A stretch of DNA of 64,000 nucleotides from Eledone cirrhosa (Eukaryota): contig OZ024742.1 in NCBI GenBank assembly GCA_964016885.1, positions 329,902,001-329,966,000 of the forward strand, given 5' to 3'. The notes below the pieces were generated by a model. It searched no databases, was not told the DNA's origin, and saw only the letters and a list, made by a program, of their open reading frames with translations. Position 1 is the first letter of the stretch. Every line of letters begins with the position of its first letter. Of this stretch, positions 985-63,252 are shown in pieces. A program made the position numbers and the translations under genes.

Positions 985-1673
985 TGAGCCCTCTGCCGCT
1001 CATATCGAATTTTGTTTATCGCGAACTCGTGCGCCGAGTTTTCGATACTCGATTATTCTACTATATTTTGCTCTAGACCTAGCTATTGACCAGTTAATTT
1101 TATTGTTCATTTTTTGTCGATTCTATTAAGTGATGAATAGCTCCTGTTTATTTTAACATGTCTATTGAGCACTCTTATTCCATATGTGTATTTCCACATT
1201 TTCCCGAATATTTTTCGCGGATATAGAGGTTATCTCCCTTCCTGAATTCCATGTGCGTATTTAGCCTGGGTTATGCCTTTTCATTCGTTTGGACAAAGCT
1301 CGTTGAGGAAGTAAACTCCCGTCCGCTGGCACCTAGAAATGTCATATATTTTTATGTGAGCTGATAGAGGACAGTTTAAGGATTTACAGAAACCCAAGAA
1401 GCTAGATTTACCATCTTTCTAGCGGGTCCGGATATGCTTTTTACATTCATTTGATTTATTGATTTATTGATTTTTTATCTGAGTGTCCTGAATCTTCCAG
1501 ATCGCAATTTTTCGGTCGTACGGTTGATTATAGACTTGTTCTATTAGTGACGGTATTTTAACGATAGTTATAGCTCTGATTTATCTAAATTATTGAGCCC
1601 TCTGCCGCTCATATCGAATTTTGTTTATCGTGAACTCGTGCGCCGATTTTTCGATACTCGATTATTCTACTAT
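985..1673. mobile_element. 609-bp non-coding insert with ~80-bp terminal direct repeat (monomer-plus / solo pLTR-like) in (TA)n
   Basis: TGAGCCCTCTGCCGCTCATATCG...ATTATTCTACTAT at 985 and again at 1594; both ends run into (TA)n. Confidence 0.7.
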
Positions 1674-2372
1674 ATATACATATATATATTATATATATAT
1701 ATATATACATATATATTATATATTATATATATATATTATATATATATATATACACATATATATTATATATATATATATACACATATATATTATACATATA
1801 TTATATATATATATAATATATATATACATATATATTATATATTTATAATAAATATATATAAACACATATATATTATATATATAATATATATATATATATA
1901 TATACATATATATTATATATATATATAATATATATATATATATATATATATATATATATAATATATATAATATATATATATACATATATATTATATATAT
2001 ATATATATATTATATATATATACACACATATATATTATATATATATATACACATATATATTATATATATATTATATATATATATAATATATATATAATAT
2101 ATATATAATATATATATATATAATATATATATATATAATATATATATATATATAATATATATATATATATAATATATATATATATATATATATAATATAA
2201 TATATATATAAAATATATAATATATATATATATATATATAATATATATAATATATATATATATAATATATATAATATATATATATATATAATATACATAA
2301 TATATATATATATATATATATAATATATATATATAATATATATATATATAATATATATATATATATATATAT
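1674..2372. repeat. (TA)n microsatellite with variants
   Basis: direct reading. Confidence 0.95.
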
Positions 2373-2563
2373 AACGAAGGAAATGTGGTAAGGAACCAGG
2401 TGGACCATAACGCACCAAAGTACTCAATACTTGAGGTAGTAGAGTGAGTAATAGTAACCAGTAAGACCCCGACAGCTGAGCTCAAGCCGTTTCGACGGCT
2501 AATTCAGTCCAGAATTAGCCGTCGAAACGGCTTGAGCTCAGCTGTCGGGGTCTTACTGGTTCC
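2373..2563. mobile_element. Asymmetric fold-back insert (family also at 56701) carrying the 3' half of a hammerhead
   Basis: ~50-bp inverted arms centred ~2508 plus ~80-bp unpaired tail; GAAA-CGGCT[TGAGCTC]AGCTG-TC-GGGGTC. Confidence 0.75.
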
Positions 2564-2621
2564 TATATATATATATATATATATATATATATATATATAT
2601 ATATATATATATATATATACA

Positions 2622-3781
2622 TCAAAAGCCAACTTAGTCATGGCATACTTAGAAGTCCAGATATATGAACAGTCCAAATCAAAATACGGATTGAACTTCC
2701 ACAAATATTTATCAGAGAATTGGAAACGCTACTTGGACGATTGCCTCATTCTTTGGTCCCACACACTCGACCAACTGAAGGATTTCAAAAACTTAATAAA
2801 CGGCATCAATAACCACATCCAATTCACAATGGAATACAGCCAAATCAACTCCCATTTCTGGACATCTTAATCACAAAAAAGACACAAATATCGAAACTGA
2901 CATACACTACAAACCAACAGATTCCAAACAATATCTGCTATTCACCTCCAACCATCCAAAGCACACGAAGACGAACATTCCTTTTAACCCAGCAAGACGA
3001 ATTTGCACAATTGTCTCCAATTATGAAACGCGAAATAAAAGACTTCAAGAATTAAAGGAAATTCTACTTGAGAGAGAGTACCCACTATTACTAATAAATA
3101 ATGGAATAGAAAGGGCTAAAGCAATAGGCATTGATGAATTACGGAAACAGAAACAAATTCAAGGTACGTCCAATATTCAATCATATATTTCAACACACAA
3201 CCCAAGAAATGCGGAAGCTTACAACACTATTCACAATAACATCCCACTACTAAAACAAAACCCAAGAATGAAAAAAGCCCTTGAAACACACAAAATAATC
3301 AAAAGCAAAAGACAACCAACATCACTGAAAACATTACTCTCCAATGCCAAATTACCTACCACAAACCCACAACCAATATCAAAAAATGTGGTCGCTCTAA
3401 TTGTGGAACCTGCACTCACCTCATTGAAGGCAACACGTATACATTTAAATCAGGAAAAATGTTACTGTAAAAAATCACTTCACTTGCTCATCAAAAAATC
3501 TAAGTTATGCCATTAAATGTAAAGGATGCAATGAAGATTATATAGGACAAACTAAACTCACACTCAGAAACAGAATGACAGTTCATCGCCAACAATTACG
3601 AGATCCAACCACGAGACAGATACCAATAAGTGCTTATCTAGACATTTGCGCAAGTAATAAGACACCCAAATTCCAAGTCTTCCCATTTTACCTTTGCGCT
3701 AACAATACAACAGAACAAATGCGAATAAATAAGGAAAATATGTTTATTCAAAAATATAGACCAACATCAAATAAGGTTTAA
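2622..3781 (+). pseudogene. 5'-truncated, frameshifted Penelope-like element (Neptune-like) RT-GIY-YIG
   Basis: ANLVMAYLE, WKRYLDDC, FTMEYS, C-x4-C-x2-C linker, YIGQT; clearly homologous to 26041-27506; 3' non-coding part probably extends to ~4998. Confidence 0.85.
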
Positions 3782-59985: not shown

Positions 59986-61584
59986 GAAACACTCACTGAT
60001 TATCATAAATGTTTCAAGTTATCAGATCAACCTTTTCATCTTTGCTACGATCGTGTGTAAACTCAAAAATTGGTGTTAAACATTATTTGCATGACTATGA
60101 AATGTATATTTAGTGACGTATTCTAATATCAATCCAGAAAGGGTATCAAATACAGAAATAACAGACCTTAAGAAAAACATGAATACATTAAATACGCAAC
60201 AGAATGTCAAAGAAGTTGAATAAAAAAACTCACATTTTAAATATTGAGAATATAGCTCCATGAAATAGATATTTCGTGTTATGCTAAATAAAATAACTAA
60301 CACAATATCATGAAATCAAACTCTAGAGCATCTAAATAATACTGAATAAAAAAAGGACGGACAAGGCTTTCAGATACAAATATACGAATACATATATATA
60401 CAAACGTCAATATCAGAAAGCACTGAATATTTTAAATATTGGAAATTTAGAATATAGCAATATATCAAACGTTGAAATATTTAGAAATATTAAAGTCAAT
60501 ATAATAGCATCATATAGATCAGTGAACACCTATTACCATAATAACATATACAAAATAATGCTTTCAATAAACGTTGATAGTCCTCTAAAACTACTCGTAT
60601 AGGGGGATCTAACTTAAATAAACAATAAAGAGAAATAGACGAAATAAGGTCTAGAAATAACCCAGAATATTTAATACATTCAAACAAAGGAATTTGTGAA
60701 CTTAAAAGAAAATTAAAAAGGAATTAAATGCTTACCAAGAAAGATGAATCCAAAATCATAGAACATTTAACACAAGAAAATCTTTTAAAAAACACAGAAT
60801 CCGTCTTTATCAAATATGACAGCTTTTCTTTGAGTAAAATAATCAATTTGATCCAATCTATTAGGAAGCCCACTAAAACCAATAGCATTCTAAAAACCAA
60901 TGAACATCTAAGAGCACGAGAAGAAGAATATCATTACCGAGTAGTGTGTAGATATAATCTCAGTCGAGATAACAATAACAACGGAATTAGCCTAGACGCA
61001 TAGAGACTACAGGCAATAAAACAAGGCTGCAATCTCATACAAATATTCCTTTGGGGAAAAATAATAATAATGAGGAGGAGGTTTGCTATATTCCAAAACA
61101 AATGACAAAGCATACTGTCAAGCGTTACAATTCAAGTCAAATCTGAGAACACTTTAACTAATACTAATGCAGTTTGGAGTTTTCATCTATAAGGAAATGT
61201 ATACTCAATACACGGGAGAACGTCATCGCAGCGACAGAAATTACTCACACATATACGTGCCTCTCTTGTATGTGACTTGCCAGGCTACGAACTAGGACTA
61301 GGTTTCACTTCAGCTCTTATAAATCCTTATACATAGTGCTGCCTTTTGTAATTTACATAACGTACGACATCAAGATGGAGTCAGTGGATGGCGTTTCTTC
61401 TCACATTTCGTACTTATCTTTATATGCAACAGGTTACGTAAATGAAACTGGAGGAATAAATATATATTATATTACACCTACGTATGTGCGATTTTCGTGA
61501 CAAAATTCAAATGTGTATATGTTGTCTTTATAAAATTCTCGAATAATTTTGACTGAAGGTTAATTGTTAAACATTATATATTGG

Positions 61585-61762
61585 TTTGGCAGTATTGGTA
61601 GAAGGTCGGACTCGATGCTTTGCAGTAAAGAATACGGCCCTTTCTGGTCTGAGTTCAAATCCCACCGAGGTTAACTTTGCCTCTCATCCTTACGGGCTCG
61701 ATAACATAAAGTACCAGTAATACACTGTGATAATTGCTGGCCTTGTGCCAAAAATAGAAACA
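61585..61762 (+). mobile_element. tRNA-type SINE
   Basis: TSD ATTATATATTGG. Confidence 0.9.
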
Positions 61763-62612
61763 ATTATATATTGGATTTCATTATAATGGCAATCCTGAAA
61801 ATGATTTTGTGTTTATGATAACTAAGTTTACGGAAACATTCTGGGACTAGGAATGGTAAATTTTATATGAATTACATATGAATGTTATTGAAATTTATTT
61901 TCACAACCTATCATTATAGAACATTAATGAATCATGGTAACAATATTCATTAAGGATTTGCTTATAATATTATATTTGTTTCATATTTATATACATTGTG
62001 AATGTTTACCTGCTTATTACGAGTTATAGTATGCATTGTATTTTGTGTCAAAACATTGGGAAGAAAGAGAGTGGTAATTATACTATCATGTAATGTTAGG
62101 TTGATTCCCAGGGTGTAATTTTCTGTGTGATATTAATGGATAATAAAATGTAACATTTCGGACTCGTTTTATTAGTGTCAGTTTTAGGGGACACATTTAT
62201 GTGTTCCAATGTCATAAATGAATGAAAGTGACTATTAAAGATAGAATAGCCGTTAGAAGACATAATATGAATATATAAATGATTATGACTTTGCAAAAAT
62301 TAAGAGGAATTTATATTAACCATAAATTTCTACAAATAATTTTAGGAGGATGTGAATTTAAAATTAGTTAATATAACTTAAGGGAGGTAATATTTATCAT
62401 AAATGTTTGAACGTAGCAATTATACGAGTGGAACACATAATTTAGTTTTAGTCAATTACTGGGATGGAAAATAGAAAATAGCTAGATGCACCGTAACTAC
62501 AAGGACGCTAAGTTCACTTGTTGCCTAAGGCAATTTGAAACAAATACTAATAACATTTAAATACTGAATGGGTTAATATGTATGGCACACACACATATAT
62601 ATATATATATAT

Positions 62613-63252
62613 ATAAGAGTGTATTGAAGTTTGCTTGAAGCATTGTGGAATAATAAAAAAAAATTGGTCGTTTTGGAAGCCTCAACAATGCAGGTAGGTA
62701 AATCTCCAGGTAACATAATCCGTTGGTGGAGAGAGAGATGTAAGAGAAAATGTAGAATCAGATGTATAGTGTGTAGAGGAACGTAGGAAAGGGCGTACAA
62801 ATAAAAAAAATAATAACACGAGATAGAGTTAGCTTGGGAGAGGTTTAATTGTCCCTATATTTCGGATTTCCTCAACTGGCCGGTTTTCCGAGGGGGAAGT
62901 TATCCGTCGGAGCGGAACGGCACGTGGCCTCTGTTGTCCGCTATTTGTGTGTAACAAAAAGCGGACAACAGAGGCCAGTACCGTTCCTCTCCGACAGATA
63001 ACTTTCCCCATCGGAAGCCCCCCCCCCCCCCGTTGACGGATGCGAAATCCGAAATACAGGGAGAATTAAACCTCTCCTAGGCTAACTCTATCTCGTGTTA
63101 TTATTTTTATGTTTACGCTCTTTCCTACGTTCCTCTACACACTATACATCTCATTCTACATTTCATCATACATCTCTCTCTTCACCACCGGATTCTGTTA
63201 CCTGGAGATTTACCCATCTGCGTTGTTGAGGCTTCCAAAACGACCAGATTTT
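62613..63252. mobile_element. Older ~590-bp fold-back with ~45-bp tail inside (TA)n
   Basis: diverged inverted arms 62660-62945 / 62957-63252. Confidence 0.8.

Follow-up and report, generated by a model that had tools for sequence, protein, structure and literature searches.

The 64-kb stretch of Eledone cirrhosa DNA analyzed here (contig OZ024742.1, referred to at its full length as the window) is a TA-rich nest of Penelope-like elements (PLEs), hammerhead ribozyme (HHR) tandem repeats and fold-backs, with ~30 inserts delimited between TA tracts by segmentation, self-BLAST and reading of the sequence. Coding and non-coding families of this nest, followed through the 3.0-Gb genome, share one insertion signature in which the 3' termini are placed at two fixed internal sites per family, termed A and B, directly followed by TA, and in which the two arms of an inverted insert end one at A and the other at B. 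This PLE tail of two fixed sites followed by TA is the diagnostic mark, and (TA)n alone is not. A two-site tail has been reported as unique to PLEs and as marking two start sites of the reverse transcriptase (RT) (PMC11167929). The presence of two-site ends and A/B pairing in coding and non-coding families alike indicates that a PLE enzyme likely copies both kinds of RNA.

The formal tally was made from alignment runs at 141 loci of six families, comprising the non-coding R466, R310 and 1288-nt families and the PLEs Nep1a, Hyd4 and Hyd5. The R310 loci are the first 10 clusters in genome order plus the two in the window, and each of the other sets consists of the 40 best among 288-1903 candidates, with a bias to young copies. 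The 3' termini lie at A or B in 226 of 237 cases, and TA directly follows 221 of these 226 compared with a background of 4.7-5.2%. The A-B spacing is 35 nt in R310, 36 nt in Nep1a, 74 nt in R466, 78 nt in the 1288-nt family, ~105 nt in Hyd4 and 137 nt in Hyd5. Measured from the predicted HHR cut, R466 ends 227-235 nt (A) or 296-303 nt (B) downstream and R310 ends 128-139 or 163-170 nt downstream, with the 3' ends of both families never falling at the cut itself. In 79 of the 81 inserts with two arms, A is paired with B (R466 19/19, R310 10/10, Nep1a 19/19, Hyd4 11/12, Hyd5 7/7 and the 1288-nt family 13/14), the remaining two being BB, and the 48 of 48 pairs in R466, R310 and Nep1a were obtained with queries that favor neither site. 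An inverted 5'-truncated copy at the 5' end is present in all six families. Outside the formal tally, two end clusters are also seen in the family of the fold-back at 2373, Nep1b, Hyd2, R657, PLE3 and Hyd6. An earlier tally by regular expression (65/78 AB, 12 AA, 1 BB) was set aside, as internal Hyd4 A sites and single variants had been scored as ends. A hairpin precedes both sites in R466 and site A in R310; none of this kind was seen at A and B of Nep1a. The TA tracts beside the ends are not distinctive in length, with medians of ~40-90 nt compared with a median of 72 nt for length-biased control tracts.

An internal control for the TA bias is provided by an APE-RT long interspersed nuclear element (LINE), not a PLE, located between TA tracts at 30266..34284 (+). 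It is young and abundant, is strongly biased to (TA)n and has a short 3' tail of repeats. In the genome its 3' motif has 3390 exact copies, and TA follows the LINE end in 20-22 of the first 30 loci compared with 5.2% (414/7920) at random. The LINE has one 3' terminus and an inverted arm in none of 30 loci, 18 of which include the 5' end. As an APE LINE shares the TA bias, flanking (TA)n is by itself no pointer to PLEs. The proposal of an earlier note, made from the window sequence, that PLE proteins insert both their own and HHR RNAs at (TA)n is supported by the two-site A/B pairing and not by the (TA)n flanks on their own.

The non-coding HHR families of the window are arranged as follows.

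15992..20898 (+): R466 array, 10.5 units of 466 nt with 10 type I HHRs; its 3' end lies at B (position 302 of the unit)
21147..21830 (-): R310 retrozyme, 2.2 units with 2 HHRs, the 3' end lying at B
34875..37164: R310 array with two arms, the minus one (1 HHR) ending at B and the plus one (6 HHRs) at A
22820..23072: short two-armed R466 insert without an HHR, ends B and A
22365-22437: extra R466 fragment
12878..13929: R414, a decayed two-armed R466 relative (66% identity over 211 nt)
52336..53022 (+): R657, monomer-plus insert with an HHR at 52671
41748..42172: two-armed insert of the 1288-nt non-coding HHR tandem family, ends A and B
5277..5800: second two-armed copy of the 1288-nt family, split by a short interspersed nuclear element (SINE) with an 18-nt target site duplication (TSD)
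54573..54841 (+): fragment of another HHR family, HHR at 54656, with a related piece at 5075-5260

The earlier note counted three HHR arrays, and three are present, although they belong to only two families, R466 and R310. Both consist of tandem non-coding units with a complete type I HHR motif in each, the predicted R466 cut falling after 16404 + 466n, and no PLE protein remnants were found in them. R466 is dispersed as 421 genome candidates at 99-100% identity and R310 as 4033 exact HHR copies in the genome. The monomers are highly self-paired, with circular-fold z values of -14.7 (25 shuffles) for R466 and -5.3 (40 shuffles) for R310. On the basis of tandem units, dispersal and self-pairing, R466 and R310 are classed as retrozymes of the type without long terminal repeats (non-LTR), with predicted cleavage. 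No RNA-editing skew was seen among the 68 private substitutions in 102 R466 units (A>G 6, T>C 9, G>A 14). In the window copy of R414 the HHR at 13552 carries GUG, a non-cleavable triplet. The tandem family R657 is older (90-95% identity), its two end sites lie ~105-115 nt apart, and its HHR, with a stem I of only 3 bp, is conserved in 26-32 copies; the 1288-nt family HHR shows an atypical U.U at the base of stem II. An octamer, ATGCAAAT, is located at 16273-16280 in R466 and at 13473-13480 in R414, ~80-100 nt upstream of the HHR. The placement would be that of snRNA-type promoters, for example in newt satellite 2, an idea that a literature check did not confirm. R466 also occurs at ~97% identity in two other organisms as wrap-round contigs of 495-497 nt (runs X4 and X5).

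The PLE copies of the window are given below with their open reading frames (ORFs), untranslated regions (UTRs) and pseudo-long terminal repeats (pLTRs).

25157..28676 (+): Nep1a, Neptune-type PLE, 5'-truncated; ORF remnant 26040-27506, inverted arm ending at B, sense arm at A
2620..4998 (+): Nep1b, second Neptune-type family, frameshifted; U3-A8 variant HHR at 4828
9149..12802 (+): Hyd2, Hydra-clade PLE with a broken ORF, inverted termini, a ~122-nt tail, a decayed HHR and a SINE inside
44942..50050 (-): Hyd4, Hydra-clade PLE with a broken ORF (47918-49779), ends B and A
29419..29981: Hyd5 two-armed pLTR, a perfect 424-nt palindrome plus a 136-nt tail
50280..52190 (+): older Hyd5-family 3' fragment with GIY-YIG end, UTR and HHR at 51999
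5863..8356 (-): Hyd6 3' UTR and pLTR, HHR at 5911; the degenerate TA/CA tract at 6330-8356 is part of the element
39340..41180 (-): PLE3, third lineage, 5'-truncated and frameshifted; decayed HHR core at 39594

Three PLE lineages are present, as the earlier note had recognized, with mutual protein identity of 22-30%. They comprise the Neptune type (26040-27506 and 2620-3780), the Hydra clade (pieces at 9398-11749, 47918-49779 and 50282-50608, together with two pLTRs, 29419 and 5863) and, as third lineage, 39875-41178 (-). The description of these PLEs as autonomous does not hold for the window, where every PLE copy is broken and none has a whole ORF; the 26040 copy begins at residue 297 of a 784-amino acid frame with residues 269-298 inverted. 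Intact stop-to-stop frames are found elsewhere in the genome for Nep1a (784 amino acids), Hyd4 (877), Hyd5 (830), Hyd6 (758) and PLE3 (1059). Two pieces that had been read as non-coding are PLE ends, the 29419 palindrome being a Hyd5 pLTR and 5863-8356 the Hyd6 UTR and pLTR.

The 784-amino acid Nep1a ORF matches Pfam RVT_1 and GIY-YIG, and the Neptune motifs GxKF, DKG, the CX2-5CxxC linker, CCHH and GIY-YIG at the C terminus are found in this ORF, which is present in L051 and L053. The choice of Neptune and not Nematis for Nep1a and Nep1b is a presumption from RT motifs. Descriptor and fuzzy scans did not find an HHR in the full Nep1a unit or in the window copy. Upstream of the Nep1a RT frame is a frame of ~240 amino acids (L051:2862-3580), either a separate ORF1 or a broken N-terminal extension. 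The Hydra clade was assigned by motifs, taking as criteria RWK-like and DKT motifs, a CxCX5C linker, CxxC and CxH in the endonuclease (EN), no CCHH, and GIY-YIG at the C terminus; RWR, SDKT and CNC-x5-C are found in the ORFs of L274, L307 and L346. Hyd4 carries U3-A8 HHRs at 45143 (-) and 49956 (+), and the Hyd5 palindrome at 29419 has an HHR with a 116-nt stem II on each arm. PLE3 (L343:2-3178) has a C-terminal GIY-YIG, a DKS motif and an N-rich N-terminal insert, and its RT motifs A and B are separated by 132 amino acids compared with 60-63 in the other lineages. Such a long fingers insertion sets PLE3 apart from canonical PLEs with a C-terminal EN, for which the accessible part of PMC8557442 expects none. 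The ESM Atlas places PLE3 among RT/GIY-YIG clusters lacking a clade name. A two-armed insert of 11 kb, L342+L343 (G000:C8:32925166-32936504), is bounded by the Hyd6 ends A and B and has PLE3 on both arms at 99.9% identity, an apparent cargo capture by the Hyd6 machinery.

Fixed ends, the TA flank, A/B pairing, very young dispersed copies and intact PLE ORFs elsewhere in the genome are read directly from the sequence. From these features PLE mobilization of the retrozyme arrays appears very probable, and it is almost as probable that a PLE enzyme writes both PLE RNA and non-coding HHR RNAs into DNA at (TA)n. Paired priming from the two sides of one break at A and B seems rather likely, and for a circular template the chances would be about even. 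In the proposed mechanism the GIY-YIG domain would cut both strands within (TA)n, and a PLE dimer would prime both 3'-OH ends at RNA sites A and B, not at the HHR cut, aided by a few bases of TA microhomology. Both complementary DNAs (cDNAs) would run through several units of a circular monomer or multimer, or of an uncut multimer, and their ends would be joined by microhomology to form a fold-back, with one-arm events leaving ordinary 5'-truncated copies. The window would be a TA-rich region in which insertions of this kind accumulated, supplied in part by Hydra-borne TA tracts. For the Poseidon PLE, RT starts at two adjacent internal sites and so produces the genomic tail, both strands of an AT-rich target are cut and extended, HHR cleavage is unneeded and a dimer is predicted (PMC11167929).

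The arms give mixed evidence on the template. The arms of one insert share locus-private variants in L031/32 (15/15 units), L040 and L050, and arms reach 14-15 units, so that an uncut linear RNA would need to span as many HHRs. Seven two-armed Hyd5 loci and one single arm, independent loci of a kind that the query favored, end no more than a few bases from where HHR stem I begins (L281-L286, L288, L300; 29760-29773 in the window), which suggests that the Hyd5 transcript may start at the ribozyme and be copied uncut. The sequence TCATT at these stops is presumably initiator-like.

Several observations weigh against this scheme. Recurrent variants are not common to both arms in L037 and L033/34, and within-arm variants recur at periods of ~2 and 4, a misfit to a single monomeric circle. 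The R466 5' ends cluster from -11 to +65 nt of the HHR cut (18/45, best-window p = 0.0085), a pattern that cut linear templates would explain no less than pausing. BLASTN and TBLASTN comparison of the retrozymes with the units of six PLE families, out of a larger number in the genome, gives low-complexity matches only and no partner homology, and the most active Neptune family, Nep1a, is one in which an HHR was not found. The A-B spacing of 35-137 nt by family compares with a published tail of 30-40 nt, most of the loci are the 40 with the highest scores among 288-4574 candidates and so the youngest copies, and no empty target alleles were seen.

The family of the 26040 protein, Nep1a, had been put forward in the earlier note for a test with array RNAs; neither an HHR nor array homology was found for it, and it would be no more than a candidate partner. 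The R310 HHR stem II is the Hyd6 pLTR variant plus two bases, and R310 and Nep1a are alike in A-B spacing. Local alignment of R310 with the Hyd6 ends gives mostly z < 6, values that are inflated by fold-back duplicates. Loop III of the HHR is 4 nt in R466, R310, R414 and Nep1b, 6 nt in Hyd2, Hyd4, Hyd5, R657, the 1288-nt family and the 54656 motif, and 8 nt in Hyd6, and this length, which sorts the families, is a possible clue to partners. PMC3846280 reports no cross-mobilization among Adineta PLE types, suggesting that partners may be specific. A more detailed and tentative model, one we would sooner doubt than assert, is that one PLE dimer primes both sides of the break at two set sites of one circular HHR RNA and copies its way around this RNA two times, in opposite arms, that the retrozymes are clade-specific parasites recognized by RNA shape and not by sequence, and that Hydra elements seed their own TA targets.

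A different origin of the arrays, in which PLE-inserted solo pLTR-like monomers later grew by unequal crossover or slippage in the manner of a satellite, is unlikely. The variants with periods of ~2 and 4 in some R466 arms and the arm-specific variants in L037 and L033/34 speak for such growth, which is also favored by a recent preprint (10.64898/2026.07.22.740005), whereas arrays on many chromosomes are 99-100% identical and both arms of one insert are multi-unit with ends exactly at A and B. Array growth would still require PLE insertion and alters only the step in which cDNA runs through the units. Formation of the fold-backs by self-priming or from a hairpin of one cDNA, possibly on an antisense template, is a published model (PMC3846280) and is given a similarly low probability here. 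Short palindromes or microhomology at many inversion centers are in keeping with self-priming. However, the outer ends differ, each being a known start site abutting TA, in 79 of 81 inserts, and a copied hairpin would yield equal ends unless trimmed by a fixed rule. Mobilization of the retrozymes by the TA-biased APE LINE is very improbable; the LINE is abundant (3390 exact 3' motif copies) with TA following 20-22 of 30 ends, and one R466 array joins a LINE 3' end (L039), but the LINE has no 3' tail in common with the retrozymes, one terminus and no inverted arm, whereas the retrozymes have two internal termini as in PLEs. Least probable, and already largely refuted, is the reading that artefacts of the assembly or library account for the palindromes and arrays, perfect palindromes and long TA tracts being generally prone to them, or that the window is a unique target locus, as asymmetric ends follow one rule at 141 loci of six families, the arms bear small differences, contigs of run X1 (possibly the source sample) show loose TA ends at 16240-16241, site B, and control stretches hold the same families.

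The favored reading of PLE-driven insertion can be compared with known systems. PLEs have been proposed as strong candidate mobilizers of non-LTR retrozymes, with circles as templates (PMC7229834), and the 2026 preprint builds its case on vertebrate data, namely co-occurrence and homology of pLTRs, with a preference for local amplification (10.64898/2026.07.22.740005). The Eledone families are like metazoan non-LTR retrozymes in having non-coding, low-GC tandem units of a few hundred nt, each with a single type I HHR whose helix III is short and palindromic, and in coexisting with PLEs (PMC7229834, 10.64898/2026.07.22.740005). They differ in that the accessible parts of these sources give no insertion signature, whereas here two fixed sites, (TA)n and mostly two-armed inserts are found. 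Expression, cleavage and circles have been demonstrated for coral, mussel and axolotl retrozymes, whereas the Eledone families are described here from genome sequence. The Poseidon PLE of Anolis is similar in its two adjacent RT starts, AT-rich target, cutting and extension of both strands and insertion that does not require HHR cleavage; for Poseidon no difference in start site between the strands was seen in bulk, whereas in Eledone A is nearly always paired with B within a single insert, the tail can be as long as 137 nt and the rule extends to non-coding arrays (PMC11167929).

Targeting of (TA)n by the Hydra clade has been described, as have inverted copies, tails at one end and non-autonomous PLEs in multiple copies (PMC8557442, PMC3846280). 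The Eledone elements share with the Hydra and Neptune clades the domain order and motifs, Hydra (TA)n targeting, partial tandems, the inverted 5' copy and the one-end tail, and differ in units of 4.7-6.5 kb compared with < 3 kb and in kilobases of TA/TG in the UTR (PMC8557442). Further differences from the clades in the accessible part of that source are the undetectable HHR and the upstream frame of Nep1a, and PLE3 matches no clade description there. MRC1 of Chlamydomonas (PMC8557442) and the pLTR cargo of Adineta (PMC3846280) are comparable as trans-mobilized, non-coding, pLTR-type, head-to-tail multicopy elements; however, these share 3' sequence with their autonomous partner, whereas R466 and R310 share at most the HHR with the PLEs compared. 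An octopus repeat annotation lists active PLEs (PMC13282606). No PLE tail or paired ends on retrozymes, and no cephalopod retrozymes, were found in the literature outside subscription papers, Dfam and Repbase. The classes are known and the link between PLEs and retrozymes is specific and testable; the window contributes to it a comparison with autonomous PLEs side by side and the LINE control.

The link bears on questions open in the literature, namely the enzyme that spreads animal retrozymes and the origin of the tandem and inverted structures and microsatellite bias of PLEs. The previously proposed route from PLE to retrozyme would now be testable, with the A/B pairing rule giving a sharp prediction for single insertion products. 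The genome offers young families on both sides, with intact ORFs of three PLE lineages and RNAs of 310 and 466 nt with mapped start sites. If true, a small RNA copied many times into (TA)n by a PLE enzyme would be a compact model of RNA-templated insertion.

The earlier note saw a landing pad in the window, which is not borne out in the sense of a special locus. TA-rich 40-nt windows make up 19.7% of the 64 kb compared with 4.7% (465/9960) in controls of 20 stretches of 10 kb (200 kb), a 4.2-fold difference, and the share is 16-20% in two of the 20 controls, 20-31% in the 20 kb upstream and 2-6% in the 20 kb downstream. The density of HHR loci, seven in the window compared with six in the 200-kb control (3.6-fold), tracks the TA content, which points to a TA-rich nest and not a special pad, and the insert families are dispersed genome-wide with the control stretches containing the same ones. 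The (TA)n borders described in the earlier note are seen as TA-rich sequence on both sides in 27 of 30 inserts, a figure that is partly circular as TA tracts had defined the insert limits. An ordinary TSD, which that note did not see, would be invisible inside (TA)n. Part of the TA tracts is supplied by the UTRs of the Hydra elements themselves, with TA-rich windows inside the Hyd6 (37/233) and Hyd5 (24/323) units and Hydra 3' UTRs that contain degenerate repeats of TA/TG over ~2 kb (L306:4500-7000; 6330-8356 in the window), so that these elements may spread potential targets along with themselves.

The HHR scan suggested by the earlier note, run on the window with a strict type I descriptor, gives 19 matches, all in the three arrays, and none in each of 30 shuffles. 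With a relaxed descriptor (one match in 10 shuffles) the motifs at 29760/29773 and 54656 are also recovered, as are two sets of U3-A8 variants, 4828 and 45143/49956; a fuzzy scan that was over-strict on stem I missed motifs caught in this way. U3-A8 is a described HHR variant of PLEs (PMC4209133). Rfam HH9 matches all 10 R466 motifs (38.9 bits, E 2.5e-6), under the gathering score of 52. The motifs at 52671, 5466/41863/41976, 5911, 13552 and 39594 fail the descriptors in the window and are conserved in 14-47 other copies. Rfam miRNA matches on TA/TG tracts were dismissed as composition noise. Self-BLAST gives 16 fold-backs, close to the ~15 first noted, of which scans and inspection by eye find five with an intact HHR, three with a decayed one and eight without, so that the statement that most carry an HHR does not stand. 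The two monomer-plus inserts described there are confirmed, that of R657 having an HHR and that at 985-1672 being negative in HHR scans. The fold-backs outside the elements listed above and the remaining inserts are as follows.

2373..2563: fold-back of an abundant family, HHR not found; two end sites ~78 nt apart, second copy at 56702-56910
8356..9116: fold-back with a decayed HHR (seen by eye) with core substitutions on each arm; ~150-nt tail
13999..14203: fold-back of the Nep1a 3' end, ~40-nt tail on one arm
23293..24166: fold-back, HHR scans negative, ~164-nt tail
41237..41476: tailed fold-back from the 3' end of PLE3
62616..63252: fold-back with a tail, HHR scans negative
985..1672 (+): monomer-plus insert with a 70-nt terminal direct repeat
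26-601: 3' end of a zf-RVT retroelement, not a PLE, with a TA tract following at 865
43960-44418 and 14233-14997: two more repeat families between TA tracts

The zf-RVT fragment is one we take to be L1/Tx1-like. In the families at 43960-44418 and 14233-14997 the TA is mostly at the presumed 5' end, and they are probably oriented opposite. Six SINE copies are present at 5554, 11981, 45178, 46213, 50601 and 61573, five of them inside PLE or HHR elements at AT-rich sites, and all six show TSD-like repeats of 9-18 nt.

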